The notes under the pieces were generated by a model that saw only the letters and a program-made list of their open reading frames with translations, was not told the origin of the DNA and ran no database searches. Below, in pieces: positions 12,847 to 29,934 of a DNA stretch of 64,000 nucleotides. Positions within the stretch are counted from its first letter, which is position 1. Each line of letters begins with the position of its first letter. Made by a program: the position numbers and the translations under genes. The stretch is from Candidatus Bathyarchaeota archaeon (GTDB lineage Archaea > Thermoproteota > Bathyarchaeia > Bathyarchaeales > Bathycorpusculaceae): assembly GCA_963833575.1 (NCBI GenBank), contig CAWHXY010000007.1, forward strand, positions 512,001-576,000. Reading direction: 5' to 3'.

Positions 12847-13062
12847 ATGTCTTCAACGTACACCATACGGATACCGCGTGAACTGAAAGAGAAAATGGAA
12901 AAAAACCCTGAAGAGTGGAGTGTGGAAATCAGAAATTTCCTTGAAGAAAGGGTCAAGCAAATTGAACTTATGAAAACAATTCAACAGATAGAGTCAAGAG
13001 CTGAAAAAAGGAAAACAAAAACAGACTCAACCATTCTTATCAGAGAGGACCGAGAACGATAA
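12847..13062 (+). CDS. vapB: RHH antitoxin (VapB-like)
   Basis: TIRIPRELKEKM...WS.EIR..LE and C-terminal LIREDRE; directly upstream of a PIN gene. Confidence 0.85.
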   Translation: MSSTYTIRIPRELKEKMEKNPEEWSVEIRNFLEERVKQIELMKTIQQIESRAEKRKTKTDSTILIREDRER

Positions 13063-13487
13063 AACTAATCCTTGACTCCAGTATTCTTTCAAAACTGGTG
13101 TTGAATGAGTCTGATTCTAAAGAGGCTAGAACTGAGGTCAGCGACTTCTTAAAAAAAGGATACACTCTTTGCACAGTAGACATAGCATTGGCTGAGTGTC
13201 TAAATGTAATTTGGAAACATTCAAACTTACTAAAAGATCTAGAGCCCAAAGAAGCAAGCTTGGCGGCGCAAGACCTCACAAAACTGTATGATGCCTTATC
13301 AGTCACCCCGACAAGAGAGTTAAAAGATGAAGCAATGCAAATTGCCATATCTCAAAACATAACTGTATATGATGCATTGTTCATAGCGGCCACGCAAAAA
13401 ATAAACGCCACTCTATACACAGCAGACAAAAAACTCTACTCTAAAACAGATAAACACATAAAATCAAAACTGCTAACAAAAGAATAA
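13059..13487 (+). CDS. vapC: PIN-domain toxin (VapC-like)
   Basis: ILDSS, E, ITVYDALFIA and LYTAD motifs; apparent ATA start overlapping the antitoxin TAA. Confidence 0.88.
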   Translation: MKLILDSSILSKLVLNESDSKEARTEVSDFLKKGYTLCTVDIALAECLNVIWKHSNLLKDLEPKEASLAAQDLTKLYDALSVTPTRELKDEAMQIAISQNITVYDALFIAATQKINATLYTADKKLYSKTDKHIKSKLLTKE

Positions 13488-13674
13488 ATAGTTCTGAAAA
13501 AATCATTTGGATCCATTGTACTGTACCACCTCACTTGCTATTTTTTTTACCATTTCGTTCTGGTTAGTCGTGACTATCCCCGTAATAATGTTTTGAAAGA
13601 CAATTTAGGCCTAATATGCCGTTATCATTCTCCCATCAAAGCGGAGATAACGAGCACCTAACTGTAACGAGGCT

Positions 13675-14091
13675 TTACTGGCAAACTTTTTGCAGAAAAT
13701 CTTTCGCCTGTGGAATTTTGTCTTGCCATTTCTCTGCTTCATTGATCCAATGCTGTCGCCAATCTCGGTTAGGATGAGGATCATTCCATTGGCTAAAAGC
13801 TAATCCAAATGATCTAGCTTTTTCGTCTAGTTTCTGTTTCTCTTTTTGCTCTTCACTGGTAAGTTTTTGCGGTTGCTCTTCTGGAATGAGTTTTCGTGAG
13901 TATCGGTATTGATATTTCTCGTACACTTCTTTTGTGATTAAATGTTCCTGGTAAGCCGCTTTCGTGAGTAAGAGAAGCCCAGCGTAGGATTTGCCAAGTT
14001 CGTGTGCCGCCTGAAATTTAATTATTGCAAAATAAAGTTCGGGCGGTAAACAAAGTTTCATTATGTGTTCTTGAGTGAATTCTTTACCCAT
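13675..14091 (-). CDS. Hypothetical protein with RHH-like N-terminus (module gene A)
   Basis: MKLCLPPELY..IIKF...LGKS; near-identical to 27585..28001. Confidence 0.75.
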   Translation of the reverse strand: MGKEFTQEHIMKLCLPPELYFAIIKFQAAHELGKSYAGLLLLTKAAYQEHLITKEVYEKYQYRYSRKLIPEEQPQKLTSEEQKEKQKLDEKARSFGLAFSQWNDPHPNRDWRQHWINEAEKWQDKIPQAKDFLQKVCQ

Positions 14092-14219
14092 CTTGATTCC
14101 TTCCTCTTTATCCCGCTTTCCAAGAAGGAAAGACGTTTGGACAATGTTAACGTAGTAACAAATAGGAAAATAGTAGACTTAACTAGCTAGCTACCTGAAA
14201 AAAAAAATAAAAAAGCTAC

Positions 14220-14768
14220 CTACCCTCCATCTTCGCTTTCTTGGTTTTGAGAGTTCTTTTCATCTGAATCGTTTAAATCTTTCAACTGGCTGATTTCTTT
14301 ACAATTATCTTCATAGAATCCTCTAGGAATGCGAAACAGATGTGCTCCATTTTCTTTTAGGTCTGAAAGAAATTCTTCTCTGTCTTTATCGGTCCAGGTA
14401 CGCATATGGGATAGGCATTCGGATAGATCTGTTTCGAAATTGTAAAAATGCAGCTTAAAGAAGTAATCAACAATTTCCTTGTTTTGGCCACCCGCTAACA
14501 AAGTCGTTGCAACATAGCAGTAAAGATCTGTTACACGCCTAAAGATTACTTCAGAGGGTTTGAGGAGTAATTCTGCGTTCTTGATTAGAATTTCTTCGTC
14601 TCCGGTTTTTAGCCACTCTTCTTCTATGTCATTGACTTTTTGGAAAAGGATCCTTTCAGCGTCTGAGAAAGACTTGAAATCAATATGGATTATCTCTTTA
14701 GGGTCAGGGTCGTTGATTTTCTTTGACAAATTATCAATCCTCTTAACTAATCCGAAATTTTTAACCAA
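14220..14768 (-). CDS. Hypothetical acidic helical protein (module gene B)
   Basis: Paralog of 28131..28728 (LYCY, LHFYNFETDL, RTWTDKD, LFRIPRGF). Confidence 0.75.
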   Translation of the reverse strand: MVKNFGLVKRIDNLSKKINDPDPKEIIHIDFKSFSDAERILFQKVNDIEEEWLKTGDEEILIKNAELLLKPSEVIFRRVTDLYCYVATTLLAGGQNKEIVDYFFKLHFYNFETDLSECLSHMRTWTDKDREEFLSDLKENGAHLFRIPRGFYEDNCKEISQLKDLNDSDEKNSQNQESEDGG

Positions 14769-14892
14769 AAATTACCTCTCCGTTTTTCTTGTTTGCCATC
14801 TGCCAAGTTTTTGGAACACAACAACGATAGCATAACCAAAATTTTAGTAACGATCTATTCAAAATTGGTTGAAAAGCAAAGCTGTGAAGTTT

Positions 14893-15285
14893 TCAAGGCA
14901 CAAAAACTCCCTTAGCTGCTAACTTTTCGAGAGCCTTTAATCTGTAAACAAGGTCAGGCAATACGAGTGTTTCATACATCATCGAATTTACCTTGAGCAT
15001 GGTGTTTAGGGCGCCTAGTTGGACTATGGGGTTGTCGGATGAGAGCATTCGTAGGCTGGCTTGGCGGTAGATTTGTTCGTATCTGTTGGTTATTTTGAAT
15101 AGTACATCTTCGGGTTTGGTGATGCTCTGCAGGTAGGGCTGCCAATTTGCTCGGGTTTCGAAATCGTTGTAGAGCGTTCGCTCTGCGCAGCCGTTTTTTT
15201 CGCTTAATTGTTTTATTATTTCTGCCTGGGAGTAACCCAAGCCTTCAAGTTTTAACAATTCTGAACGTCGTTTAGCGACTTCCAA
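14893..15285 (-). CDS. HTH + helical protein, possibly terminase-small-subunit-like (module gene C)
   Basis: GYSQAEI..L...G..ERTLYND HTH followed by amphipathic helices; paralog of 28814..29206. Confidence 0.65.
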   Translation of the reverse strand: MEVAKRRSELLKLEGLGYSQAEIIKQLSEKNGCAERTLYNDFETRANWQPYLQSITKPEDVLFKITNRYEQIYRQASLRMLSSDNPIVQLGALNTMLKVNSMMYETLVLPDLVYRLKALEKLAAKGVFVP

Positions 15286-15524
15286 GAGAATTCACCTTGT
15301 AGACTGTACTTCTAACAAATTTGATTCATGATACATATCGTCAGACAATGTCCAACTGTAGAGCGAGGCCCCTTTCTCTGATTCAAATTCTAATCAAAAC
15401 TTTTCCAAACAGACACCATGCTTTGTCAAGAAACCAAAAAAAGAAGAAGCCACATGACCTAACGCGGACAAAATTAAATTCTCAATTCCAACTAACTTTT
15501 CAAAACTTTGATCTCCCCTAACAA

Positions 15525-16340
15525 TTAAAAAAGAAGCTTGGACAATCTGCGTATTGTTTTGCGGGTCACACCAAAGATTTCTTCAAGCTGTCTTTCTGAA
15601 ATGCCTTCTCCCTGATGTTTCCATACCGCCATATTTGCTGTTCTATAGATGGCTGCAGCAAAAAGTTTAGGCATCTTTTTGGCCGAAGCCTTATTGTTTA
15701 TTTGATAATGGGTCACTTTGTTTTTGGCGAAGTTTATAGTTTCAAGGCTTAATCCTGCTTTGTAGAGCTCTGGCAGTTTTGCTTGGATTAAACTGTTGAG
15801 TTCTTTGTCTGATTTGGCTTTGTCTGAAATTGCTTTTGAATATCTTTGAGCGCATTTCTTGAAAAGAACATTTTTTTCAGAGAGCGCGGGTTTTCCTTTT
15901 ATTCTTAGCGGTTGATTTCCGGTGGGTTCCAGATTTGCCTGCATGTGTGCCGATATTTCCGCGTTGGCGCGGTAGTCGCCTGAGCAATCTATCCAGTAGG
16001 TGAAATATGCTTGACAGGAGGAGCATTTGAAAACTATTAGGTCAAAATCTCCATATTTATGAGTTTTTTCAGAGCGGCAATAGATTTCCTCAAATACGTG
16101 ACTACACTTGGGGCATTTATCCGGGATTATGTCGCGGTCTTCTGTAAGAGTTTCAATTTTCATTTCAACTGAGAAATCTATTTTTTCAATTGCTTTGGAG
16201 TTTAATTCATTAATTATTAATTTTTTTTCCAGACGGCATCTTCCCTCTTTATCGTTAACATTTTTCAAGAAAAACATTGTGCACTGCATTATTGAAATTT
16301 CAAAAATGTGAGCGGGCATTGAAGGCCAACTCTCTCTCAA
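15525..16340 (-). CDS. Zn-ribbon protein with a C-terminal TFB/TFIIB cyclin-repeat-like HTH (start uncertain)
   Basis: CPKC...CSSC; LFAAAIY...ISERQLEEIFGVTRKTIRR resembles the TFB C-terminal repeat. Confidence 0.6.
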   Translation of the reverse strand: MRESWPSMPAHIFEISIMQCTMFFLKNVNDKEGRCRLEKKLIINELNSKAIEKIDFSVEMKIETLTEDRDIIPDKCPKCSHVFEEIYCRSEKTHKYGDFDLIVFKCSSCQAYFTYWIDCSGDYRANAEISAHMQANLEPTGNQPLRIKGKPALSEKNVLFKKCAQRYSKAISDKAKSDKELNSLIQAKLPELYKAGLSLETINFAKNKVTHYQINNKASAKKMPKLFAAAIYRTANMAVWKHQGEGISERQLEEIFGVTRKTIRRLSKLLF

Positions 16341-16436
16341 TAGAAGGCTAAATTCTGTCCATGAAAACCCCTGAAAACTACCCCATGGACTAGATTCATA
16401 GTTTATGTGTCATGCTAACAACCTGCGTTCCACAAG

Positions 16437-16536
16437 TTTTGGGTGAAGGGGGCTCAGAGACTCAGGAGCATTGGAGCATAGTTCGTTTTAGATCGGCAAA
16501 TATTTTTGCGCAAAAGATATAGTCTCTCGCCTAAAA
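16437..16536 (+). other. Conserved branched stem-loop element (RNA or ssDNA structure)
   Basis: TTTTGGGTGA pairs with TCGCCTAAAA via G-U; inner GAGC/GTTC and GCAAA/TTTGC hairpins; conserved at 29288-29388. Confidence 0.55.
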
Positions 16537-16852
16537 AGCTATCGGTTATCTTCAGGCTCTCGACACCAAACAACACAAAACCATCCCCTTCCCCACTTAA
16601 AGTTGCAAAACGCCAAACAAAAATAAGCTCAATTCTTAATCATTTAACAAATTCGGGCAGGAAAAACCGACTTTAAACTAGACCAACCCCCTAAAACCGC
16701 AACTTTCTTGCAAACCATCTTTTGAATTCAACCAAAAACCACATAGTCCTTTCAGATCTTTTTTTGCCATTTAATATATTAGTAAACAAATAATTGTGAC
16801 TTGCAAACAGACTTAAATTACGTACAGCCAGTTTGCTGGTGAGTAAAACAAG

Positions 16853-17863
16853 ATGGACAAAATAATACGCGAAGACATTGAAAAAATAAAAAGCAACGTG
16901 AAAGAGGAATTTTTCGCATCAAAAAAAGTCCTGGTAACGGGTGGCGTGGGGTTTATCGGCAGTTGGCTTTGCGATGTGCTTGTTGATTTTGGCGCTGATG
17001 TAACGGCTGTTGATGATTTGTCAACTGGACGAATGAAAAACATAAACCATTTAACGAATACCTCCAAATTTAGGTTTATAAAAGAAGACGTTTGCAAGTT
17101 CCGCAGCCAAGAAAAATTCGATCTAATTTTGCATATGGCGGGACATGCTTCTCCTGACGAGTACCTGGAACATCCAATTGAAACGCTTCAAACCAGTTCT
17201 GTGGGCAGTGCCATTATGGCGGAGTTAGCAAGGAAGAATGATGCTACTTTGCTGTTTGCATCTACCTCGGAGGTTTATGGTGATGCTGAGGTTATTCCTA
17301 CGCCTGAGAGTTACTGGGGAAAAGTTAACCCGATTGGTCCCCGATCATGCTATGATGAGGGAAAACGGTATGCGGAAGCGTTGCTTGTCGCGTATCATAA
17401 ACAATATGGCTTGGATGTAAAGCTGCCGAGGATTTTTAACACCTATGGCCCACGCTTAAGAGAAGATGGGTTGTATGGCAGAACAATGTCACGTTTCATC
17501 CTGCAGGCTTTAACTGGAGAACCGATAACAGTTTACGGTGATGGAAACCAAACCCGATCATTTTGTCATATAACAGATACCGTAACGGGTTTGCTGGAGC
17601 TGGCAGCATGCAAGAAGGCTAAAGGCGAAACCGCAAACATCGGAAACCCCCAAGAAGTAACCATCATAGAACTTGCAAAAAGAATTAAAGAAATAATCAA
17701 CTCCAACTCGCCAATAGAGTTTCGCTCACTACCCAAAGATGACCCAAAAAGACGCTGCCCAGACACACACAAAATAGAAACACTCGTAAACTGGAAACCA
17801 AAAATAACCTTCGAAGAGGGGCTCAAAAGAACAATAACATGGTTTACATCAAACATAGCCTAA
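16853..17863 (+). CDS. UDP-glucuronate decarboxylase-like NAD-dependent epimerase/dehydratase
   Basis: TGGVGFIGS, ASTSEVYG, RSCYDEGKR, RIFNTYGP, DDPKRR. Confidence 0.92.
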   Translation: MDKIIREDIEKIKSNVKEEFFASKKVLVTGGVGFIGSWLCDVLVDFGADVTAVDDLSTGRMKNINHLTNTSKFRFIKEDVCKFRSQEKFDLILHMAGHASPDEYLEHPIETLQTSSVGSAIMAELARKNDATLLFASTSEVYGDAEVIPTPESYWGKVNPIGPRSCYDEGKRYAEALLVAYHKQYGLDVKLPRIFNTYGPRLREDGLYGRTMSRFILQALTGEPITVYGDGNQTRSFCHITDTVTGLLELAACKKAKGETANIGNPQEVTIIELAKRIKEIINSNSPIEFRSLPKDDPKRRCPDTHKIETLVNWKPKITFEEGLKRTITWFTSNIA

Positions 17864-17914
17864 AAACAGAACAGAAAAACCTCAAGAAAAACACTCTTCG
17901 AATAACTAGAAAAT

Positions 17915-18163
17915 ACAGACATGCAGGTTAGTCTAATTTTTCCAAACTCGATAATAAACGCGCTGCTTGAACTGCTATAACAAGTGGCTCTACTTTTTAG
18001 GCATTTTATTTGTGATATAGCATAGCGCGCGCAATATGTTGCATGTATAGCCTAAAACGAGTAAACACTTGTTGCCTTCTTTTGAGAATGATTAACCACA
18101 TTTACCTTAACCAACCTTAGTAGTCCGCCGTCGTGGTCGTCGTAGTTTGGTTGGTTGGATTAA
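17915..18163 (-). repeat. ~250-bp non-coding repeat, inverted homolog of 22953-23200
   Basis: Shared in order: TTAATCCAACCAAC..ACGACGACCACGAC, GTGTTYACTCGKTTYAGG, AGCGCGTT, AAAAAAT..TARCCTG. Confidence 0.7.
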
Positions 18164-18369
18164 GATTTAGTCCACACACACAAACGACCTCTCAGAAGAT
18201 TATGTGGTATAGAACCTACTGGTGTAGGTTAAAAAACAATAATCCTTTCTTGGGTATGGTATTGGTAGGTAGGTATGTAGGTAAAAATAATGTATGTGCT
18301 AACTAAAAGTTAAGGCATACATTTCAACAGGGCATACATTTGTTAAAGAAAACAAAAAGAAGGAAGATG

Positions 18370-18389
18370 GGAGCTTTGGGTCAAGCTCC
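18370..18389 (-). terminator. Hairpin plus T-rich tract downstream of the 18408 gene
   Basis: GGAGCTT-N6-AAGCTCC followed on the minus strand by T runs. Confidence 0.45.
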
Positions 18390-18407
18390 TATTTGATTAA
18401 TCGTTGC

Positions 18408-19058
18408 TTAACTATTGTGCTGGAACATAGAGTCTGAAAGTGAAGGATTAATCTGGATATTGGTGAACGTAGCCGTGTCTCCTGCATTTGTTTGTCCACT
18501 GGGTATGGTGTAAGTATAGCTTCCAGAGCCACCATAGTAGGTTAGCATGTTTACGTATACACCTGCTGACGATTGAACGGTGGACTGAAAAGATGAGTAT
18601 TCGGCAGAAAGGTCAGTCCATGTTCCGCCACTATTTTCCCATACTTTCTGCTGGGCGCCGTTAATAATTAACTCGGTGGTGCCGCTCGAAGGCGTCGTTA
18701 CAACCCACAGTAGCTCTGCGTTAGACGTCCCAATGTTCTTTGCCGCATAATATACCGTATCAATTACTGTGCCATTGCTAGCTCTACCTGTCTCGTTGAA
18801 CTCATAACTGGTTGCAGTCGCAATACCGCTAGTTGAGGTTGAAGTTGGTTTGGGTGTAGCTGTTGCACTTGAACTACTTGTAGCCGTCGCAGTTGGTTTA
18901 GGTGTAGGTGTAGCGCTGGAGCTGGCATTACTGCTACCACGTGTGGCCACATATACGCCGACTCCCACCACAATAACTGCAATGATAACTATTGCAACGA
19001 TAATTAACGTGCTTATAGCGCGCGTGCTGTTTCTATTTATTATTTTTCTTTCTCCCAT
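18408..19058 (-). CDS. Membrane-anchored secreted protein with class III-like signal peptide and Ser/Thr linker
   Basis: RAISTLIIVAIVII N-terminus; S/T/P linker. Confidence 0.75.
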   Translation of the reverse strand: MGERKIINRNSTRAISTLIIVAIVIIAVIVVGVGVYVATRGSSNASSSATPTPKPTATATSSSSATATPKPTSTSTSGIATATSYEFNETGRASNGTVIDTVYYAAKNIGTSNAELLWVVTTPSSGTTELIINGAQQKVWENSGGTWTDLSAEYSSFQSTVQSSAGVYVNMLTYYGGSGSYTYTIPSGQTNAGDTATFTNIQINPSLSDSMFQHNS

Positions 19059-19203
19059 TTTTAATCCCTGTTTTGTATAATTTGCTCTTTGCAAATATAA
19101 GCTTACTACGAACTTTAGTTCCTCAAATGGAACGATTTACGGCGTTTTTTAACTTTCAAGTTGCCTTGGTGTTGGTTAATAATCAATTTTGTGCCCATCT
19201 TCA

Positions 19204-19431
19204 AAATCTATGGAAAAACTATGGAAATCTATGGACTTGCCATTGTACCCATAGATAGTGCGCGTGTTTGAATATGTGGTTTGAATTTTGGGTTTGTTGA
19301 GGCTCTGGCACAGAATATAGGAGAAAAGAGCAAACGAAAATGCTCTCTCACGCACTATGGCTATCGCGTGAATTTTAACCAGAGCCTACTCAACCCCAAT
19401 CTTTCTCAATAGCTTTTTTAGCACGCGTTAT
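19204..19431. other. Three short direct repeats followed by a ~175-nt branched inverted-repeat structure
   Basis: AAATCTATGG-like unit x3; CGCGTGTT/AGCACGCG, AGGCTCTGG/CCAGAGCCT, GAGCA/TGCTC and CACGC/GCGTG stems. Confidence 0.65.
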
Positions 19432-19451
19432 ACCTAAATAAAAAAATAGGA

Positions 19452-19748
19452 TTAAGCTGGAATTAACGTAAAACCTAGTCCCTCAAGTCGCGCCTGAAAA
19501 GAACCTAAGTAATTGACATTTTCTAATGGCTCTGAGTTTTTTGCTTCCTTCTTGATTATCTTGTACTCTGTTGGCTCTTCACCCTCACGTTTACTGACAA
19601 TTTCAAGTTTCCGCTTAGAAGCAACTTGAGCGATTTGGCAAATTTCACGTTCTAAGATAGCTTGATCATCAGCAAGTTCAGCTATGAAAGATTGAGCGAA
19701 AAAGGACTCAGGCGCATAAAGCCAAAGAATCGGTACTTTACCAGTCAA
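19452..19748 (-). CDS. Hypothetical protein
   Basis: 98-aa ORF with upstream GGAGG. Confidence 0.55.
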   Translation of the reverse strand: MTGKVPILWLYAPESFFAQSFIAELADDQAILEREICQIAQVASKRKLEIVSKREGEEPTEYKIIKKEAKNSEPLENVNYLGSFQARLEGLGFTLIPA

Positions 19749-20118
19749 TCCACATTCGCCTCCCTTCTTATCTTTTAGTCTTCACTGTTAATTTTGGAAG
19801 TGAAGTTAAGCCGCTTATGGCGGCTAAATCTTGAATAAGATGCCTTCTTTTCTTGGGGAGAAAAGCAGCGATTCGTTGGTCGCATGCAACTTGTTTTTGA
19901 GGATTTGGTGTTTGCCTGCGATTCATGTGAGTTTAATAGCCTTGGACAGTTAAGCCTCTGCCAGCGGCTTCTCTCACTTCACTTTTCAGGAAGCTTGTTG
20001 TGCGGTTTAAATTTTGCGGTAGCAAGCTCAGATCAGCCCGCTTGTGGCAAAAATTAAAATCGATTGTATGCTCATTTGGTACAAGTGAAGGCTCTCGTTT
20101 ACGATAATAATCGAGTAA

Positions 20119-21312
20119 ATGGATGGGATGAAATTGAAAGTATTGGTGAATGATGGTTTGGATAAAGAAGGCATGAAATTATTTGAGGCTGCTGGAATCG
20201 AGGCGGACTGTAATAGGAGGGACGGAAATGCACTAGTCACACAGGTAAGGGAGTTTGACGCTCTGGTTGTGCGAAGCGCAACCGTCGTCACCCGAGAAGT
20301 TATCGAGTCAGGCAGCCGGGGCAAGCTGAAGATTGTTGGCAGGGCTGGCGTTGGTATTGACAATATCGATGTAGCTGCGGCCACTAAGAATGGCGTTGTA
20401 GTTAAATCTGCTCCGTATGGTAATACTAATGCAGCGGCGGAGTTGTCTTTGACTCTGATGCTGGCCGTTTCTAGGAATGTAGTATCTGGGGACAATTCTC
20501 TGAGGCACGGCGTTTGGCGTAAGAAGGGGTTTGAGGGATGTGAACTTTCGGGAAAAACACTGGGAATTTTGGGGTGTGGACGAATCGGTCAGAGACTAAG
20601 CGAGCTTGCTGTAGGGTTTAACATGCACGTGATAGGGTATGATCCTGTTGTGGTTTCGAATTCCAAGATACAGTATGTGCCGAAAGAGGAGGTCCTTTCC
20701 AATGCTGATTACGTAAGCGTAAATACAAGTGGAAAAGAGACTGTGATTGGAAGAAATGAGTTGTTTTTAATGAAACCTACTGCTTACTTGATTAATACTG
20801 CTCGCGGCCACAACGTGGATGAGAAGGCACTGCATGCAGCGTTAAAAGCAGGGAGCTTAGCTGGGGCGGGTCTTGACGTTTACGAGGATGAGCCCACAGA
20901 GGAAGGGGCCGAGTTCAGAAGTAAATTGAGGGAATTGGATAATGTTGTTCTAACCCCACATTTGGGGGCATCAACCGTGGAAGCGCAGCAGAAAACTTCA
21001 ACAGAGATTGCGCGAGTCGTCATTGATTATCTGTTGTATGGGAATTTCTCTAACGCTGTTAACGTTGGAGAAAACATCGAGTCAGAAGAGAGAACGTTTT
21101 ACCCTCTGTTTATTTATCACATGGACAAACCAGGCATGTTTGCCAAAATCGACAAGGTGCTTGCAGATTACGGGGTTAACATAAGGGAGAATCCATCAAG
21201 GCAAATAGGAGAGGGCTATGCAATCGCTGTTTACTTAGTGCATCAAAAAATCGAGCAGGAAGTGATAGATGAACTGAACAAGATCGACGGTGTCATTAGA
21301 GCCAAAAAATAA
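20119..21312 (+). CDS. serA: D-3-phosphoglycerate dehydrogenase with ACT domain
   Basis: RAGVGIDNID, GILGCGRIG, INTARG, TPHLGAST; C-terminal ACT (DKPGM). Confidence 0.88.
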   Translation: MDGMKLKVLVNDGLDKEGMKLFEAAGIEADCNRRDGNALVTQVREFDALVVRSATVVTREVIESGSRGKLKIVGRAGVGIDNIDVAAATKNGVVVKSAPYGNTNAAAELSLTLMLAVSRNVVSGDNSLRHGVWRKKGFEGCELSGKTLGILGCGRIGQRLSELAVGFNMHVIGYDPVVVSNSKIQYVPKEEVLSNADYVSVNTSGKETVIGRNELFLMKPTAYLINTARGHNVDEKALHAALKAGSLAGAGLDVYEDEPTEEGAEFRSKLRELDNVVLTPHLGASTVEAQQKTSTEIARVVIDYLLYGNFSNAVNVGENIESEERTFYPLFIYHMDKPGMFAKIDKVLADYGVNIRENPSRQIGEGYAIAVYLVHQKIEQEVIDELNKIDGVIRAKK

Positions 21313-21446
21313 AAGACGAATTTTCCTAACACGCTGGCTTGTCCTTAAATTAAGTCAATGTTTGCTTTCAGGTCGGCAAGAGTTGTTAGAGACCAGAGTA
21401 AGCACCAGCAAAACTTATAACAAATTAGGGTCGGTTGGATTGAAGT

Positions 21447-21644
21447 TTATTCATTCCATTTCATCGTATATTTTTCTTCTAGAGTCTTATAAAATTCCTT
21501 TTCTAACTCGATCTCTTTCTTCACCAGTTTATCCCAATCTGCTCTTGTACATTCTGTTTCTAAATTGAGGATCCAATTCTTCATTTCATCCTGAAAATCG
21601 TCCAAGTTTTTCGCTATTTCTTTTAGTTCTCTCAATTTGGTCAA
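21447..21644 (-). CDS. Small coiled-coil hypothetical protein
   Basis: 65-aa charged helical ORF. Confidence 0.5.
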   Translation of the reverse strand: MTKLRELKEIAKNLDDFQDEMKNWILNLETECTRADWDKLVKKEIELEKEFYKTLEEKYTMKWNE

Positions 21645-21721
21645 GTATAATACTCATTAATCACTTATTACTTGTTTGTTATGCTTTGGAAAATATGGGC
21701 GCGCTATTGACTACTTTAAAC

Positions 21722-21886
21722 TTATTTAGCCAACCGGTTTTGCCTTATCCCACTGACAGTTGTTGTTTTGCCTGCGCCGTTCGAGCCGAGGAAACCGAAG
21801 ACTTCGCCGTCGTTAACATGCAGCGTAAGGCTTCCAACAGCTGCAAGGTTGCCGAGTTTTTTTGTCAGGTTCTCTGTGCCGATCAA
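21722..21886 (-). pseudogene. Truncated ABC transporter ATPase (N-terminus only)
   Basis: ENLTKK.G...[22 protein letters not shown], then an early stop. Confidence 0.85.
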
Positions 21887-21909
21887 TTTAACATTACCAG
21901 ACTTCTTTC

Positions 21910-22090
21910 TTACTTGTAGGCTAATTTACCGTTTAGTTCACTTTGGGGGGGCAAACGAACAATAAAAGTTGTTCCTTTACCCTCTTGGCTCTCAAAAGTT
22001 ACGGTGCCTCCTAACGATTCGGTCATACGTTTAATTACTGCTAATCCGAAGCCTTGACCCTTAGGCTTTAGTTGAAAACATGGGGATAAA
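21910..22090 (-). pseudogene. Histidine kinase HATPase_c C-terminal fragment, frameshifted
   Basis: LFIPMFSTK / KGQGFGLAVIKRMTESLGGTVTFESQEGKGTTFIVRLP. Confidence 0.85.
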
Positions 22091-22208
22091 CAATTTATTT
22101 TTAGCGCGCTTTGGTTAAGTATCCTGATTGTGGGAAATTGAGAAGCCTGATAGGTTACTTGAGGTTAAATATCAGAAAAAAGAATAGCAACCATGGAAGG
22201 TTAAGAAA

Positions 22209-22859
22209 GTGAGAGCAGCGAGTCTTTTCTCTGGGGGCAAAGAATCAGTTCATGCCATATCTAATGTTGAAAACCAAGGTGTAGAGGTTAAGCATTTGAT
22301 TCACGAAATCCCAAGTTTCACATCGCCTCATGCACACAACAATGAAGCCCTAAAAACCCTTGCAAAATCCATGAACAAACATTTCGTAATCGTAGACCTT
22401 CACAAAGGTGAACAAGAACTTGTTGACTCGCTTAAGAACCTCAAGATTGATGCACTCGTTGCAGGAGACATCAACGTTCCTCAACACATAACGTGGCTCC
22501 AAAACATATGCAGTCAAGCGGGCATAGTACTGCTTGAACCGCTTTTCGGGAAAAAAACATCAATCTTGTTTCAGGAAATGTTCAGCGATCCTAGGTTCAA
22601 AGCAACAATCATAGGCGTAAACACAAAATATCTGACAGATGAGTGGTTAGGGTTCACAATAAGCAGTGAAACAGCTGAAGATTTCTTGTCAAGAACGAAA
22701 CAAATAGACCCTCTCGGAGAGAACGGTGAATTCCACACCATAGTTGTTGAGAGTCCTCTCTACTCCAACAAATTCAAAACAAAGGCATTGGAAAAAATAA
22801 CTGAAAAAGATGTGACATATCTTCGCATAACGCTAAATGAGTGGTTAGAACGGACATGA
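22209..22859 (+). CDS. Diphthine-ammonia ligase-like PP-loop ATPase
   Basis: SLFSGGKES, GDI, EPL, DPLGENGEFHT. Confidence 0.85.
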   Translation: MRAASLFSGGKESVHAISNVENQGVEVKHLIHEIPSFTSPHAHNNEALKTLAKSMNKHFVIVDLHKGEQELVDSLKNLKIDALVAGDINVPQHITWLQNICSQAGIVLLEPLFGKKTSILFQEMFSDPRFKATIIGVNTKYLTDEWLGFTISSETAEDFLSRTKQIDPLGENGEFHTIVVESPLYSNKFKTKALEKITEKDVTYLRITLNEWLERT

Positions 22860-22939
22860 AAACATTGTTTCCAATAATCCCTCATCTGATGCGGTAGTAT
22901 ATAAGCAATTTTGAGTTTCGTATATTTCATAGGGAGGAG

Positions 22940-23200
22940 GGATTAAAAAAAATTAATCCAACCAACGACGACCACGACTACCGTTTACCATGTTACGTTT
23001 CTAAAAAATAACAAAGTGTTCACTCGGTTCAGGTAACACATATCATACAAGGGTAAGGTATAGTATATGTAGTGTCGAAATCGAGTAAACACATCAAACT
23101 ACAAAAAATAAGAAAAAATAAAGGAAAACAAGAAAAACGAGCGCGTTATCCAACATTTAGAAGAAAAAATAAGCATTAGCCTGAAAGAATCTATGATGTT
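22940..23200 (+). repeat. Non-coding repeat with GGATTAA-N6-TTAATCC core and ~80-nt imperfect hairpin
   Basis: GTGTTCACTCGGTT pairs with AATCGAGTAAACAC; homologous to 17915-18163. Confidence 0.7.
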
Positions 23201-23373
23201 TTAGGCGCGCGCAAACAAGTATGCAACCTCTAAAGAAATAAGAGTAACGTTAGAAAGCTGACTTTACACTATTCAATCAGCCGTTTTGGGGTAATAACTT
23301 GCCTGAGTTTGAAAGGCTGTTCAGCTTGCACTTTTAGAGTTAAAAAGAGTAAGCCAGTCGCCTGTGACTGCGA

Positions 23374-25218
23374 CTATCGTTTATTGTCTTGATTCAATTT
23401 GCTAAGGTCAAAACCGCAGAAAGGACAGAATCCTCCAGCATTAGTTAGCTGTTTTCCGCAGTTGGGACAGAAAGCAGGTTTTGGTTGCATAACAGTCGAT
23501 TGAACGGTCACTGTTGTAGCTGTTTCTGTGGCTAGCGCTGTTGTTTTTGGCATTTCAGACATAACCAGCGGGGACGGGGGCAAATTTTGATTTCTAATAT
23601 TTTGACTGGATAGGCGAGACTTCTTTGAGATTTTTCTTCTGCTCAGGATACCAGCGAGCACTGCCACTATTGCTATGATCACTATCAAAAGAATTAAAGC
23701 TAAAATCATTGAATCAGAAAGAAAAGCCGCAGCTCCTTTTGTTGGTCCAGCAACTATAGGTGTAGCAATAACTGTTGCAGTTTGTGTTGGTGAAGACACT
23801 GGCTCTATTTGTGTCCACCATTGATTGATTGAAGAAGAATCGAAGGCAGATATTTTCGAGTTTAGATCCAGTTGGCTGAACCCATTTGTGACTCCAGATG
23901 CAAGTGATAACATCTGACCTGCTGGTATGGTTATTGAGGCGTTTGTGTATTGATCAACAAATAAGACTGAACCATCCATTACCTGTATGGTTGTTGCTCC
24001 GTTGATAACCGTGACGATGTATTGCGTTCCGTCACCCATTAATATTCCCTGAGGCACCTGTACTGGTCTCACGTCGTAGGTTCCTTCTTGGGGAGACATC
24101 TGTTCATTGATATATGCTATGCCTGTGCCCAGCAATATTGTTCCTTCAACAACTAATGCCCCACCTAAAGTTATTGGCGCCCCAGTCACTGCCATAATAG
24201 CTAAGCCGACGCCGACTTCAGCGGCAAGACCCACTCCAGCTTGACCTAACTCGTCAGGCTCTATGCCTTCAGAAAACTGAAACGCACCAGTTGCCGGTGG
24301 CGGCACTGCAACATAAGAAATGTTTCCATTCACTGGATCAGTTGTAGGCTCAAGATATACCCAGCCAGCATCTGAGTTTGCGCCTAAATACACTTCTCCG
24401 CCGTTGTCAGGATAAGTAAAACCGATAATCCCGTTACTGCCCGTTTGAACTTCTGAACCTGAACCTATTTGACTTTCCGCAGTGACCGGAGCACCAGTTG
24501 CTACAAGATTTGTTGTTCCTTGGGCGACCGAAATTCCTGCAAGATTGGTTGCTGTAGGTGGGGCAGGTACAGGTGTTGGAGAGGGCGTTGGAGATGAAGT
24601 GACAACAGGAGGCAACGTGGCAGATGAACCCGAGCGCAAAACAATTATGCCATTGGTGTCTGTGTTTTCGTTGGGTCCAGTTAGCGTTGCGGTTATGATG
24701 TCGGTAGTGAAGGTTCCAGCTATGTTTTCTTGGTTTCCTGTGCTTGTGTATTGCTCATCAGCGGAGAAACTGGCGCCTGAAACTGTTCCGCTAAAAGCAA
24801 TTTGGTTAAAGCCTACCATAGGAACGCCAGCCATACCATATTCATTCCAATATGCAGGGTCTGTAGAGAAGCTTATCACATTGATGTTCAAGATTATGCT
24901 TATTGAGCTACCGCTTTGAGTTATCTGCATGCTATATGTTACGTTTGCATCGTTCATCCTTGTAGTTGGGTCAGAAGGATCCAAGTCATAGTATTTTTCA
25001 GGTATGGCGTTGGTCCATGTTCCAGTTAAATCTCTGGCTGGAGTAAGTGCAGCACGCAAAGACGGGGTTAAAGCTGAAAACAACAATATCGCTAACAATA
25101 CCGGAGTGATAATTTTAAAAATGTTAGAGGTTTTTCTAGATCTAAAAGATAAACGGGTAACTTTCAGTTTTTGCATTTGATTTGTCGCCGAATACCGCAT
25201 ACGCAGATTGTTTGGCAT
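23374..25218 (-). CDS. Secreted/membrane protein with FecR-like segment and C-terminal zinc ribbon
   Basis: Signal peptide, GTQY.V....TTIQV.DGSV, TM helix, FCPNCG...FCPFCG. Confidence 0.75.
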   Translation of the reverse strand: MPNNLRMRYSATNQMQKLKVTRLSFRSRKTSNIFKIITPVLLAILLFSALTPSLRAALTPARDLTGTWTNAIPEKYYDLDPSDPTTRMNDANVTYSMQITQSGSSISIILNINVISFSTDPAYWNEYGMAGVPMVGFNQIAFSGTVSGASFSADEQYTSTGNQENIAGTFTTDIITATLTGPNENTDTNGIIVLRSGSSATLPPVVTSSPTPSPTPVPAPPTATNLAGISVAQGTTNLVATGAPVTAESQIGSGSEVQTGSNGIIGFTYPDNGGEVYLGANSDAGWVYLEPTTDPVNGNISYVAVPPPATGAFQFSEGIEPDELGQAGVGLAAEVGVGLAIMAVTGAPITLGGALVVEGTILLGTGIAYINEQMSPQEGTYDVRPVQVPQGILMGDGTQYIVTVINGATTIQVMDGSVLFVDQYTNASITIPAGQMLSLASGVTNGFSQLDLNSKISAFDSSSINQWWTQIEPVSSPTQTATVIATPIVAGPTKGAAAFLSDSMILALILLIVIIAIVAVLAGILSRRKISKKSRLSSQNIRNQNLPPSPLVMSEMPKTTALATETATTVTVQSTVMQPKPAFCPNCGKQLTNAGGFCPFCGFDLSKLNQDNKR

Positions 25219-25241
25219 ATTAACATTATGAACCCTAACTA

Positions 25242-25500
25242 AATAGTGCGTGTGACCTCTTGCTTCATGAACGCTTCATTCTTGCAAGTTTTACAAATTG
25301 CTGGAAAAAGGTTCAAGAAGAGTTTATTTTAGCGAGCATGCGTGTTCCTAAAATGCTTATAAGTGGTTAAAAGTCTGCTTTTGTGTTCAAGTTGTGTTTC
25401 AAGGCCTGGATTCTGAATGGAAACAGAGAGCTGGGTCAGACAGCCAAAAGACGAATTATAACCATATTTCACCAATTTAGGAACAACCACGCGTACTATT
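25242..25500 (+). other. ~260-nt non-coding region closed by a 13-bp stem
   Basis: AATAGTGCGTGTG/CACGCGTACTATT (two G-U) and TGTTCCTAAA/TTTAGGAACA. Confidence 0.55.
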
Positions 25501-25988
25501 GAGGTAGATTTAGTGCTAACTATTCTAGTTCTTCGCTTGAAACAAGAAACACAGGGTATTGTTGCAAACCACTTGATTTGTTACTTGTGCTTCTATGACC
25601 GTCCCTACATCTCATTCCGTATCTTGTTTTAGTTTCATTTTCCCAAACCTTTTCAGTTGGTCCACCACATATTGGACACTTAAAATCTTTCATATATTTT
25701 CACCAAAACCGAAAAAGGTAAAAGTAAATAAGTCGTTGCTGAGTTTTTCCAAGTTCTTCCGCTCTGTACGCGTATTGTTAGCTTGTTTTCTTTAAGTCTT
25801 CCTATTCTAATGAAGCGACCAAGAGCGAAGAAAATAAAAAAAGAAGTCGAGCTAATTCTCAAGCATAAATCGAACAATCGAGAAGTTGGCTACAAAAGAT
25901 GCCCAAAGTACAAAGTGACAAAGAAATAGAATTACTCACGCTCATATAGGAAAATTAAGGATTTACATGCATTATTGTATTGACCGGT

Positions 25989-26336
25989 TTAGTCGCTGAG
26001 TTTCTCTTCGAGTTTCCTCGCTTCTCTTTGAATCTGTTCTTGAGCGAATGCAATTAACAGACATAAGCCGTTATTTTCCACACACATTTCGCTATCTTTT
26101 AGCGAAATTGCCTTATCGTAAAAGATATTCTCGATTTCTTCTTCAGCATCTGGTTGCAACTTTAGTAACGATAAGTCAAGGTGCGTTTCTGCAAAGGGAA
26201 ATCTCTCTTGCAATTCTCGAAGTATTGTTCTTTCTTCGCACAGTTTTCTGGTCTCTTTCAATGGCATACCTTTTCCTTTGTCAACGAGCATGTTCAAATT
26301 GAAAGTTAGATAGGTCAATAGTTTTATTTTTACCAT
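25989..26336 (-). CDS. Hypothetical protein
   Basis: 115-aa ORF with upstream GAGGT. Confidence 0.55.
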   Translation of the reverse strand: MVKIKLLTYLTFNLNMLVDKGKGMPLKETRKLCEERTILRELQERFPFAETHLDLSLLKLQPDAEEEIENIFYDKAISLKDSEMCVENNGLCLLIAFAQEQIQREARKLEEKLSD

Positions 26337-26395
26337 TTATTGAACCTCTAAAAGCAGTATTTCAAAGCGATTATTAGTTTATTTATCTTCATGCT

Positions 26396-26560
26396 TTAGC
26401 ACGCAACATTTAAAAAATTAGACTTTCGTTTTTCGTCCTTCAAAACGAACTTGTAACATTCACAGTTAGGTTTAGTACATACTCTATCTAAAAAATATGA
26501 ATGTTCACTTTTAAGATGCCCACACGTGCACATTCCATCTTTAATTTCAGCTTTATCCAT
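26396..26560 (-). CDS. 54-aa Cys/His-rich putative metal-binding protein
   Basis: MDKAEIKDGMCTCGHLKSEH...CTKPNCECY; below the ORF-track cutoff. Confidence 0.55.
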   Translation of the reverse strand: MDKAEIKDGMCTCGHLKSEHSYFLDRVCTKPNCECYKFVLKDEKRKSNFLNVAC

Positions 26561-27230
26561 CAAGATTTATCCTTATTAAATAAACAACTTTAGCCTCAAA
26601 AGGTTTTAGGTTTGGATCTCCTTAACTTTTAATCCCACACACACCGACCTACCTAACGTTCAGGTGTAATGGTAGAGGCTACTCGTGTTGAAAAAAATAA
26701 TAATAACAACATAGTTAGGTATTGGTATGAGCAGTAAGAAACATAATAAAACTTCCCTGTCAATCATAAAATAATGTTATCAGGGGTAAAAAATAATAGA
26801 AAACTTGTCCCTCATAAACTAACAAATAATTAAGAATTATGTTAGGATTTCCTGCGATAATTATGCTGCCCATTGATTTTTAGTATTTTGTTTAAGCACT
26901 GTTTTTCTTCTTTGAATTGTCAGCTTGGGTCTGTCTCGAACGGTTGGCGTTGGCTTGCTTCTGTCTCGAACTATTGGCGGCATTTGCTTTTCTGGCTATA
27001 CTGCTCCTGTTTGGAGAGGTCGTATTTCCTTCTGGTCTTTGTTGTTTACGCAAAACATTCAACCAAAATTATATAGTACTTTGTTCTTAATTTGTCTTAC
27101 ATTGAGTGCCCGAAATGTGTAATTTTGAGTTTAGCCTCATGTACAAGCCGACGTTGATTTAAAAGAGATTGTTGCTCAAACACGCTCAATCTACGCTTAA
27201 ATCATCCCTTAACCCTCTATTGGCGATAAA

Positions 27231-27362
27231 ATGAAGCTTTATCATGTGACACGGCAGCGAAACCAAAACTCAATTATGAAGCACGGATTAATCCCAAAAA
27301 AAACCCTGATAAATGGAAAAGAAGGGCAACACGAACAGCCTAAACAAAAAACTCTGCTCTAA
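27231..27362 (+). pseudogene. Truncated ADP-ribosyltransferase-fold (KptA/Tpt1-like) N-terminus
   Basis: MKLYHVT....SIMKHGLIP motif, then runs into the duplicated segment. Confidence 0.55.
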
Positions 27363-27584
27363 AACAGATAAACTCACAAAATCAAAACTGCTAACAAAAG
27401 AATAACTAGTTCTAGAAAAAACATTTGAATCCATTGTGCCACCTCACTTCCTATTTTTTGCCATTTTCATTCTGGTTAGTCACGAATATGCCCGCAACAA
27501 AGTTTTGAATGACATTTAGGTTTATGTGCCGTTATCATTCTCCCATCAAAGCGGAGATAACGAGCACCTAACTGTAACGAGGCT

Positions 27585-28001
27585 TTACTGGCAAACTTTT
27601 TGCAGAAAATCTTTCGCCTGTGGAATTTTATCTTGCCATTTTTCAGCTTCATTGATCCAATGCTGTCGCCAATCTCGGTTAGGATGAGGATCATTCCATT
27701 GGCTAAAAGCTAATCCAAATGATCTAGCTTTTTCGTCTAGTTTCTGCTTCTCTTTTTGCTCTTCACTGGTAAGTTTTTGCGGTTGCTCTTCTGGAATGAG
27801 CTTGCGTGAATATCGGTACTGGTATTTCTCGTACACTTCTTTTGTGATTAAATGTTCCTGGTAAGCCGCTTTTGAGATTAGGAGAAGCCCAGCGTAGGAT
27901 TTGCCTAGTTCGTGTGCCGCCTGAAACTTGATTACTGCAAAATAAAGTTCGGGCGGTAAACAAAGTTTCATTACGTGTTCTTGTGTGAATTCTTTAGCCA
28001 T
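27585..28001 (-). CDS. Module gene A, copy 2 (RHH-like N-terminus)
   Basis: Near-identical to 13675..14091. Confidence 0.75.
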   Translation of the reverse strand: MAKEFTQEHVMKLCLPPELYFAVIKFQAAHELGKSYAGLLLISKAAYQEHLITKEVYEKYQYRYSRKLIPEEQPQKLTSEEQKEKQKLDEKARSFGLAFSQWNDPHPNRDWRQHWINEAEKWQDKIPQAKDFLQKVCQ

Positions 28002-28130
28002 TCATGATTTCCTCTTTTTTGTCCCGATTTCCAAGAAGGAAAGACGTTTAGACAATGTTAACGTAGTAACAAATAGGAAAATAGTAGACTTAACTAGCTA
28101 GCTACCTGAAAAAAAAAATAAAAAAGCTAC

Positions 28131-28728
28131 CTACCCTCCATCATTCCTTTCTTGCTGTTGGTTGGGCTCTGTTATGTCGCTGGGTTTCTTTGAATTTACA
28201 TCATTTTCGGGGGTTTGATCAGTCTTTTCATCCAATTCCTTAGAATTAATCAGCTCGGAGTTTTTGACAATATTCCTTGTCGAATCCTCTTGGAATTCGA
28301 AATAATTGTGTTCCATTCTTTTTTAGGTCCAGCAGAAATTCTTCCTTGTCTTTATCTGTCCAGGTACGCACGTTTTCCAAACATTCTGCTAGGTCAGTTT
28401 CAAAATTGTAGAAATGCAAGTCAAAGAACCATTTTACAATTTCGTAGGTTCCGTCACATCCTAGCGCGAGAGGGGCAATATAGCAATATAGCTCTCTTAC
28501 ATGTCTTAGAATGACCTCAATTTGCTTGTCAATTAACTCTGCATTCTTAAATAGAATTTCGTTTGAACCACTTTGGCGGTATTCCTCTTCGATTTCATCA
28601 ACTTTAGCAAAAAGAGCCTGCTCTTCTCCAGAAAATGAATAATAATCAATTTTTATCAATTCCCCATTGTTGTCTTTGATTTTCTCGTTCAAACCATCAA
28701 TCCGTTTAACTAACTTCAAATTATCCAA
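28131..28728 (-). CDS. Module gene B, copy 2; apparent frameshift near 28270
   Basis: Homology in ORF 28246..28728; the ...DGG* tail of copy 1 lies in ORF 28131..28316. Confidence 0.7.
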
Positions 28729-28813
28729 AAACTACCACCTCCGACGCAGTTCTCTACTTGAATAAATTTCCTGAAATTTCCACAGACATTGCTCCAAAAT
28801 TCTGCTCGACACC

Positions 28814-29206
28814 TCACGGAACAAAAACTCCTCTAGCCGCCTTCTTTTCCAAAGCTCTAACTCTGCCCATCAGATCCGGCAAAACCAATGTTTCATACAT
28901 CATAGAATTCACCTTAAGCATCGTATTCAAAGCACCCAACTGAACCAACGGGTTGCTGGAAGAGAGCAATCTTAGGCTTGCCTGGCGGTAGATCTGTTCG
29001 TACCGATTGGTTATTTTGAATAGCACATCGTCAGGTTTAGTTATGCTCTGCAAGATGGGTTGCCAATTTTGACGTGTTTCAAAATCGTTGTAGAGCGTTC
29101 GCTCAGCGCAGCCGTTTTTTTCACATAGTTGTTTAACTATTTCAGCTTGAGTTAAACCCAAGCCTTCAAGTTTTAGTAATTCTAAGCGTCTTTTGACTAC
29201 TTCCAT
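28814..29206 (-). CDS. Module gene C, copy 2 (HTH, TerS-like)
   Basis: Paralog of 14893..15285, same length. Confidence 0.65.
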   Translation of the reverse strand: MEVVKRRLELLKLEGLGLTQAEIVKQLCEKNGCAERTLYNDFETRQNWQPILQSITKPDDVLFKITNRYEQIYRQASLRLLSSSNPLVQLGALNTMLKVNSMMYETLVLPDLMGRVRALEKKAARGVFVP

Positions 29207-29287
29207 GGTTTTACACTCGCGAAATTCAGACTGTCTGCTGAGTGATCTTGTTTTTTATGAAGTATGCTGTTTCCCGCACTCCGCGAC

Positions 29288-29388
29288 TTTTGGGTGAAGG
29301 GGGCGAAGACCGTAGGATCATTGGAGCAATGGCTCGTTTTAGATCGGGCAAATATTTTTGCGCAGTAGATATAGCTTCTCGCCTAAAA
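29288..29388 (+). other. Conserved branched stem-loop element, copy 2
   Basis: Same stems as 16437-16536, with pairing-compatible changes (GAGC/GCTC vs GAGC/GTTC). Confidence 0.55.
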
Positions 29389-29934
29389 AGCTATCGGTTA
29401 TCTTCAGGCTCTCGACACCACACTGCACAAAACCCATTCTATTTTCTCTTTAAAGTTGCAAAACGCCAACTAAAAATAAGCCCAATTCTTACTTATTTAA
29501 CAAAACTAAGCAAGAAAAACCGACTTTAAACTCGACCAACCCCCCAAAACCGCAACTATCTTGCAAACCATCGTTTGAATTCAACCACAAAACAAATAGT
29601 CTATCCAGAGCCTTTTTCGCCATTTGACTTGCAACATAGCACACGCCATAAAACTCAAAATTTCCCATAAGACCAAACTGGACCAAAAAACAAGAAAACT
29701 TCATTTGAAGTAACGTAGCTTATAAAAAAACCAATTCAAAAACCCCGTCAGATACAGATCTCTATAGTAGGAAAAAAGAATAAAAATCTTCAAACTGGCA
29801 ACTATGTAAAAACGCTTTTTCTCTTTTCGTTTTCTAAAATAACTAAAGTTTTCATTGGTTTAAACTTGATTTGCTCGGCTCAGAAGAATTGCAGGTTCGT
29901 AAAACTTAAATGCAACTCCAACAAAAAGCAAACT

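Follow-up and report, generated by a model that had tools for sequence, protein, structure and literature searches.

Two related modules with a TerS-family gene in a Bathyarchaeia genome and their att-bounded, capsid-less relatives

Staphylococcus aureus pathogenicity islands (SaPIs) encode their own small terminase subunit (TerS), which directs the large terminase subunit (TerL) of a helper to the SaPI packaging (pac) site; in-place packaging moves the downstream chromosome, which enters recipients by homologous recombination (cited passages of PMC12829572 and 10.1101/2024.04.22.590561). In bacteria, tailed viruses have terminase-hijacking satellites, which are important vehicles of genes and hot spots of defence. 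Phage-inducible chromosomal islands (PICIs) are among the bacterial classes that the consulted part of a 2019 survey gives as not detected in archaea (PMC6563490), and in the available portion of a 2025 preprint the only satellites named are those of spindle-shaped viruses (10.1101/2025.02.15.638363). Here we describe two related gene modules, each with a TerS-family gene (gene C), in a 64,000-nucleotide stretch of a Candidatus Bathyarchaeota archaeon genome (assembly GCA_963833575.1, contig CAWHXY010000007.1, positions 512,001 to 576,000; hereafter the window, with positions counted from its first letter). We see an even chance that both copies are reduced, integrase-less satellite derivatives of a helper-dependent, PICI-like element family of Bathyarchaeia, reshuffled by recombination. 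The elements of this family are best read as an undescribed archaeal satellite-like family: no paper on them was found in full-text literature, a search with subscription journals outside its scope, and supplementary tables may list them.

Comparison of the window with itself (BLAST) gave three collinear blocks on the same strand, 13426-14776 against 27344-28736 (79% identity, 1411 columns), 14893-15284 against 28814-29205 (78%) and 16429-16772 against 29280-29625 (84%, E 3e-102), which bears out the two repeated modules of the same gene order reported in a preliminary description of this DNA. On the minus strand each copy reads upstream block, C, B, spacer, A and hairpin. The three genes counted in that description, A, B and C, are common to both copies, and copy 1 has a fourth gene, T (15525..16340), between the block and C. 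The divergence is mosaic, as had been noted, with A (96% protein identity) and the spacer (94%) near-identical, and with protein identities of 58% for B and 86% for C. Alignment of the two copies, which had been proposed as a check, gave dS values of 0.22 (A), 2.1 (B) and 1.6 (C) and dN/dS ratios of 0.07, 0.14 and 0.06, respectively, i.e. 0.06-0.14 across the three genes. The uneven dS suggests that C and B are old, selected paralogues and that the A side was exchanged recently. One public sequencing run, possibly derived from the source sample, contains short pieces of both copies at 99% identity or more (28 of 30 bins covered), and the copies are about 20% apart, which together rule out an assembly artefact. 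Three other public runs contain related, recombined modules, and joints of recombinant modules occur in the population reads (16559/29518 and 27818/14032).

Gene C (14893..15285 in copy 1, 130 aa, and 28814..29206 in copy 2, both on the minus strand) is modelled as a helix-turn-helix (HTH) followed by a long helical hairpin (pLDDT 88). The genomic company of its homologs supports its assignment as a homolog of the TerS of Bathyarchaeia head-tail viruses; since the structural Z scores are low, this assignment is carried by synteny. C homologs lie directly before a PF03237 TerL gene in L035, L036, L037, L039, L040, L041 and the viral contig L048, and before TerL also in L234, L236, L238 and L253-L256, with portal and capsid genes further along the operon in L037, L041 and L253-L256. 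The same arrangement is found in three of the six viral contigs that bear the leader described below. In a set of 112 distinct full-length C sequences (known duplicates left out, and enriched for the window subfamily by the search pattern), TerL directly follows C in seven and stands beyond a ParB-ABC-GNAT block in two more; gene C of the window itself has no TerL beside it. The C profile also matches an open reading frame overlapping the TerL start in the provirus of the same genome (contig C6; hhalign 86%, E 5e-6, residues 25-101). The TerS-like nature of gene C, suggested before from the sequence alone, is upheld by these matches. When Foldseek's 332 best chains were re-aligned to the model (50 rows listed), the TerS structures 6ejq (Z 6.1, root mean square deviation (rmsd) 5.4, 112 aligned), 4xvn (Z 5.7, rmsd 4.9, 107 aligned) and 6v1i (Z 5.3, rmsd 5.7, 111 aligned) were found; the alignments of the G20c and P74-26 TerS span residues 1-114/121 of the model, and phage TerS are three of the four rows, among the 50 listed, that cover both C domains. 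Wide fold searches of the PDB and of a viral library gave nothing significant for C, and its best PDB sequence match is an archaeal regulator (E 0.26). A conserved imperfect palindrome lies just 5' of the ribosome site in many C genes. The C-terminal GVFVP of C was considered as a TerL-binding motif and set aside, since a viral A homolog has a similar end and an overlap with the ribosome site of the next gene would be the simpler explanation. Fragments of C beside tRNAs turned out to be partly integrase C-termini, matched through one C-integrase fusion. The provirus remnant of the same genome (G000:C6:2400-21000; L002, L003) contains the leader, ParB-ABC-GNAT, TerS, TerL, portal, capsid and neck genes, adjoins tRNA-Asn, and has no recognised tail genes and no integrase nearby; it is the likely kind of helper.

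Gene B (copy 1: 14220..14768, minus strand, 182 aa, 430 homologs) directly follows C in 79 of the 112 C loci and is the constant, often doubled, downstream neighbour of the window C subfamily. In copy 2 (28246..28728, minus strand, 160 aa) a 2-base frameshift near 28250, close to the gene end, removes its acidic tail. B shows no profile likeness to either TerL type, by which its reading as a mimic of the TerL N-terminus was rejected, and the ESM Atlas gave no usable match. C followed by B appears to be a separate lineage under purifying selection with no TerL nearby: none of 25 B-linked C loci with at least 4 kb of downstream sequence has TerL within 6 kb, the seven TerL-adjacent C sequences form one separate group (SH-aLRT 94) in a quick tree of 130 columns with long branches, and the dN/dS of C against 11 relatives is 0.08-0.17.

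The loci can be arranged in four architectures. In a full provirus the order is leader, two small genes, ParB, ABC ATPase, GNAT, C, TerL, portal and capsid; in portal-less TerL operons (L067, L241-243, L249, L251 and L252) a T or HTH gene is followed by C, ParB, ABC, GNAT and TerL; TerL-less loci read C-B(-B)-ParB-ABC-GNAT and then cargo; and the window type, (T)-C-B-spacer-A, is found in 11 of the 112 C loci, which come from two or more parts of the tree. Tandem copies within a locus have nearly always the same orientation. ParB-ABC-GNAT we take to be a packaging-linked DNA-modification block, for which nothing was found in print. The genus thus offers a series from full provirus through TerL-only or TerS-only att-bounded islands to minimal cassettes, a testable route of gene flow in a sediment and peat lineage that is abundant and for the most part uncultured; it gives a name to the TerS of Bathyarchaeia viruses, and the TerL-only islands are a class meriting separate study. 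A second TerL-less subfamily, F12-C-ParB-ABC-GNAT, with an internally repeated upstream gene, occurs in L042-L045, L068 and L268-L275, and one of its members is att-bounded. Many TerS-TerL operons without portal or capsid behind them are present genus-wide (L035, L036, L039, L040, L067, L241-L243, L249, L251, L252), similar to the NitKor-E1 element discussed below. In L232, L216 and L224-L225 several 3' fragments of GNAT, in one orientation, lie among the cargo downstream of C-B-ParB-ABC-GNAT, possibly a recombination hot spot.

Attachment (att) sites were sought in 23 joined regions, 11 of which have a tRNA call. A direct repeat of part of the tRNA (24-29 bases) encloses C and an integrase in three of these 11. 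G087:C22 has a 24-base tRNA-Leu repeat, spans about 22 kb and carries type I restriction genes; G111:C13 has a 25-base repeat from the tRNA 5' end, spans 11.7 kb and encodes an archaeo-eukaryotic primase (AEP; PF01896, E 5e-6), its integrase being a 184-residue piece and several genes inside the element being split; G131:C10 has a 29-base tRNA-Ala repeat, spans 14.7 kb and belongs to a B-less C subfamily. In all three a tyrosine integrase stands beside the tRNA and cargo is present, and none contains TerL, portal or capsid. Judged by gene content, these att-bounded relatives have the anatomy of PICIs. An integrase occurs in the examined flanks of five of 23 ParB-type loci and of none of 17 window-type loci. 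The satellite-like element of the preliminary description therefore stands at the level of the family, through att-bounded, integrase-bearing, capsid-less relatives; that the two window copies are themselves a discrete element is not supported. Immediately before tRNA-Arg in L178 (10001-10470), an open reading frame joins the 5' part of C to the C-terminus of an integrase, a collapsed element retaining both ends.

Similar to PICIs and SaPIs, as these are described in the cited passages, the three att-bounded elements have an integrase at the att site, a TerS of their own, no TerL or capsid and a size of 12-22 kb (PMC12829572, 10.1101/2024.04.22.590561), and members of the family share with them a primase (G111) and cargo placed between the pac end and the opposite end. 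Different from them, the family is archaeal, carries B (often two) and ParB-ABC-GNAT and has no recognised repressor-alpA-xis-ppi set, and the window copies are without integrase, primase and att. The PICI-like tycheposons of Prochlorococcus, according to the part of the source consulted (10.1101/2020.12.28.424599), also have a tRNA-targeting tyrosine integrase, terS and primase in some members, and degenerate remnants that pile up into islands; they belong to another domain of life, the window copies are far from any tRNA, and the comparison is one of anatomy. NitKor-E1 of Nitrosopumilus, an archaeal integrated element with TerS, integrase and VapBC and without capsid, is read as a likely relic in the relevant passage of its source (PMC6563490). 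It is a single case and has TerL too, whereas here a TerL-less lineage is found genus-wide, next to TerL-bearing portal-less forms that resemble it. As in the pac mimicry of PLE, Gpi/GpsA/GpsB and P4-type mimicry, so far as the cited passages describe them (10.1101/2024.04.22.590561), a cis sequence shared with the helper lies 5' of a small packaging cluster; in the present case the position of the shared sequence marks it as a promoter/leader, and its pac role is a candidate only. The archaeal pSSVx, pSSVi and SRCE have a partial morphogenetic module as well, but in the available portion of the source they are plasmid-derived and parasitise spindle-shaped viruses via ATPase/MCP, with no terminase (10.1101/2025.02.15.638363). 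The main text of a paper on Bathyarchaeia viruses (10.1101/2023.08.24.554615), in the version at hand, contains neither "satellite" nor "ParB".

The upstream block consists of two parts, both on the minus strand: part a (16600..16772 in copy 1 and 29450..29625 in copy 2) and part b (16402..16551 and 29268..29402). Part b comprises about 120 bases, starting at what we take to be a TATA-like box followed by about 100 bases of leader. An exact 20-base motif of part b is present in six IMG/VR contigs and in all six precedes the first small gene, ParB-ABC-GNAT and TerL; in copy 1 part b ends in the first four codons of the first small gene of the viral operon. Part b is also found alone at non-viral sites. 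From these matches part b appears to be the leader of a viral packaging operon, and the 120-base leader may be used as a marker for such operons. It is fused directly to C in copy 2, L076, L077 and L151. None of 13 predicted pairs of part b shows a compensatory change (19 sequences) and no Rfam family matches, which suggests that its signal is one of sequence, probably DNA; a structured RNA was rejected on this ground and because the folding of the block is not better than that of shuffled sequences. Part a runs collinear with the operator-like palindrome, the ribosome site and the first codons of ParB-type C genes, with a 1-base gap that breaks the frame. In searches with a block profile 21 of 65 matches fall at C starts (E 4e-6 to 9e-4, some loci being counted twice), and an independent profile made from 40 of 106 C starts finds part a of copy 1 at E 0.002 and that of copy 2 at E 0.26. 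Variable columns distribute over the codon positions as 10/13/11 in part a vs 9/3/15 in real C genes; part a is thus not codon-like, but a non-coding look-alike of the C/terS gene start. There is precedent for pac sites inside or 5' of terS (cited passage of 10.1101/2024.04.22.590561), and part a is on this ground a candidate pac site or operator, no more. The block has nine matches in this genome, including six shorter copies and a third full copy 60 kb away (G000:C7:600332-600690; L001:10333-10691), which has no module genes and lies between a PQQ-repeat gene and a thiolase gene.

Gene A (13675..14091, minus strand, 138 aa, helical, 99 homologs; 27585..28001 in copy 2, minus strand) and the spacer before it (14091..14224 and 28001..28135, minus strand), which has two AGGTAGCT boxes in copy 1 and is presumably the promoter/leader of A, travel together, also behind genes other than B: in L191 they stand after a portal fragment, in L188 after an ATPase gene. 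A homolog of A (37% identity) is encoded by a complete virus of 46 kb that has terminal repeats and TerL, and divergent A genes lie near terminase or head genes in L196, L197 and L202. By these associations spacer and A appear to be a separate unit of viral origin. A had been described as ribbon-helix-helix (RHH)-like; no search supports this. No Pfam or PHROG family matches A, fold searches in three libraries gave nothing significant and the ESM Atlas no usable match, and no RHH match was obtained in 38 members or against one RHH control; the monomer model has a helix at 7-14, and the fold search barely covers the N-terminus. The RHH pattern, as we presume it to run, fits A by eye. A bulged hairpin, possibly terminator-like, follows A in both copies (13616..13656 and 27525..27567, minus strand), as had been reported; it folds no better than shuffles (z -0.17 and -0.66). 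A similar stem follows A in L072, L074, L076, L125 and L191 (13 aligned). Fragments of A between toxin-antitoxin pairs had suggested an integron-like att at the A 3' end, which was rejected: the fragments have ragged ends, which fit deletion and not cassette insertion.

Downstream of A in copy 1 lies the vapC gene (PIN domain, PF01850, E 9e-9; 13098..13487, plus strand) of a vapBC cassette. The homology between the copies enters the 3' end of vapC, and copy 2 keeps a relic of it (27346..27405, plus strand) whose translation matches the last 19 vapC codons at 16 positions. Because the homology ends inside vapC, this is a shared flank and not an element end. The conserved non-coding ends of the preliminary description are thus conserved in sequence, but they are a promoter/leader block that recurs elsewhere in the genome and a shared vapC flank, not element termini. 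The vapBC pair (12770-13508) is found as a cassette in other sequence contexts in three of the four public runs. The reported lack of a visible integrase or end repeats was confirmed: of five integrases in the genome none lies within 500 kb on the window contig, and no 9-mer, direct or inverted, is common to the end regions of the copies. Neither copy contains a tRNA or an Rfam family, or capsid, tail or lysis genes, and as in PICIs and SaPIs a TerS-family gene is present; integrase and att were looked for at the ends of the window copies and are absent. Public reads and comparison of the end regions gave no empty site, circle or att. With ends made of leader and flank, ragged relics and none of these three traces, the proposal that the copies are discrete, trans-mobilised elements with conserved ends is not supported. 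A transposon, a miniature inverted-repeat transposable element or an IS200/IS605-type element was rejected on the lack of common end repeats, the ragged fragment ends and the entry of the homology into vapC; no target duplication was found either.

We propose that a complete element of the family would be 12-22 kb long, have tRNA att repeats, cargo, a tyrosine integrase and, in some cases, an AEP primase, and lack TerL, portal and capsid. Gene C would be its own TerS, binding an operator or pac motif at its own 5' end and recruiting TerL and capsids from a head-tail virus, whether resident or infecting, by which the element and the downstream cargo would be packaged. The window copies would keep only the packaging-initiation end, i.e. 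the viral leader, the non-coding second terS 5' motif, C and B, together with the separate promoter-A-hairpin unit of viral origin, and the copied viral promoter/leader may turn them on together with the late genes of the virus. They would be unable to excise, excision and replication having been lost, and would persist, reshuffled by homologous recombination, in a variable surface-glycan, pilin and toxin-antitoxin island; any transfer would take place by in-place packaging and subsequent recombination in the recipient. Taken alone, the window copies are probably stranded derivatives, and the result is more modest for them than for the family. It is rather unlikely that the cassette is functional, an integrase-free "packaging launch pad" (late promoter, pac-like site, TerS and B) kept by the host, which together with the att-bounded relatives would make a family of PICI-like satellites, the first for archaeal head-tail viruses; infecting head-tail viruses would then package and spread the island by lateral transduction and recombination.

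Several results weigh against reading the copies as satellite derivatives. The TerS Z scores are under the tool's level of meaning for helical proteins, the Pfam and PHROG TerS models do not match C, the window subfamily of C is without the C-terminal tail present in TerL-adjacent C, the C tree is the quick, long-branched one mentioned above, and the E values of part a (0.002 and 0.26) are weak. Profiles of the primase, helicase and MCM families match nothing in the 18 window-type loci or among the called proteins of the genome, and integrases are likewise absent from all 18. Eight of the 11 tRNA-bearing regions have no att repeat, a primase was recognised in only one of the three att-bounded elements (the cargo of G131 was scanned with in-house profiles only), and many copies are broken, including genes within the 11.7-kb element. 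In short-pattern scans of the IMG/VR viral collection B and T were not found and close C was found once, which counts against the proposal, as a packaged satellite might be expected there.

The same data may be read in other ways. The copies could be plain provirus debris, in which a deletion brought the left end of a packaging operon next to viral A, a gene unrelated to it; chance duplication and decay would have followed, the conservation reflecting past selection in viruses. This would be in line with the leader standing alone in six further places of the genome, a TerL in six pieces in L242, the portal fragment joined to spacer-A in L191, the ragged A fragments, the frameshift in B of copy 2 and the common vapC flank. 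The depth of the C-B lineage, never with TerL (0 of 25), the recurrence of the (T)-C-B-spacer-A order in separate parts of the tree, the existence of att-bounded capsid-less elements and a low dN/dS between close pairs (0.17 at dS 0.16) speak against debris, which we consider improbable. Still more doubtful is a host-kept antiviral decoy, a defence gene in a toxin-antitoxin and restriction island that moves like other cargo, in which the late promoter drives a TerS look-alike and B and jams the terminase of the infecting virus. The viral leader fused directly to C, the vapBC-type pairs, type I restriction-modification (R-M) systems and methylases that neighbour C loci, the absence of mobility genes from the 18 window-type loci and the known satellite inhibitors of TerS/TerL (cited passage of 10.1101/2024.04.22.590561) would agree with it, but the same C-B pair heads integrase-bearing elements, and a second terS-like cis motif would be superfluous for a decoy. 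That C has been re-used as an ordinary HTH regulator of its own operon, which it would control by way of the palindrome 5' of its ribosome site, the element being a DNA-modification or defence island without terminase use, is similarly quite unlikely: the palindrome before the ribosome site, the position of C as first operon gene, its PDB match to an archaeal regulator and the absence of TerL after B are compatible with regulation, but the TerS homology spans both HTH and hairpin (residues 25-101; fold 1-114), and C-x-ParB-ABC-GNAT operons run into TerL in L067, L241-243, L249, L251 and L252.

Gene T of copy 1 (minus strand) encodes a zinc ribbon, a helical region and a C-terminal HTH-like region. 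Only the zinc ribbon of its relatives resembles transcription factor B (TFB), with 34-36 columns aligning to the host TFB, and PF00382 (cyclin repeats) matches none of 10 T members, so T was rejected as a TFB paralogue. T and its relatives make up a separate small family, with 94 clusters at E 1e-10. T homologs stand beside a primase and an integrase (L217), a primase (L246), and MCM and an integrase (L250), from which T appears to be a gene of integrated elements; they occur also in TerL operons.

Among close C homologs, 35 of 38 titled records are from Candidatus Bathyarchaeia/Bathyarchaeota, and the three bacterial-titled ones are probably misbinned. C is present in 20 of 36 genomes of the same genus vs one of 24 from other families. 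In profile searches of 120 genus genomes C was matched in 60, B in 28, A in 27 and T in 17, frequently as several copies and frequently broken; the copy count across relatives that had been suggested thus gives a patchy, multi-copy distribution within the genus, C reaching half of the genomes. The TerL family is found in 105 of these 120 genomes, with 1-7 matches each, so potential helpers are common. For metagenome relatives of C the best 80 of 303 loci were used.

Around the window-type loci there tend to be genes for glycosyltransferases, flippases, exosortases, pilin-like proteins and toxin-antitoxin systems. One or more such island markers are found in 15 of 17 window-type loci, three of 23 ParB-type loci and four of 13 TerL loci, an enrichment that is suggestive only, because the markers were chosen from the same loci, which are moreover not independent of one another. 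By eye, the glycan genes did not keep to one side of C. A large multi-copy family of PQQ-repeat surface proteins of 870-1000 residues is spread over the genome, often in or beside these islands (e.g. G000:C7:464305-484267 and 590516-599905). Directly downstream of copy 2, window positions 25516-27128 are made up, mosaic-like, of short segments that have copies of 85-96% identity on contig C4 (at 113 kb, 215 kb and 331-333 kb). On the other side of copy 2, positions 29866-30566 comprise a gene that has a degenerate internal repeat of 117 bases, as well as the beginning of a pilin-like gene, and match C6:1271-1959 (75%) at the broken end of the C6 provirus.

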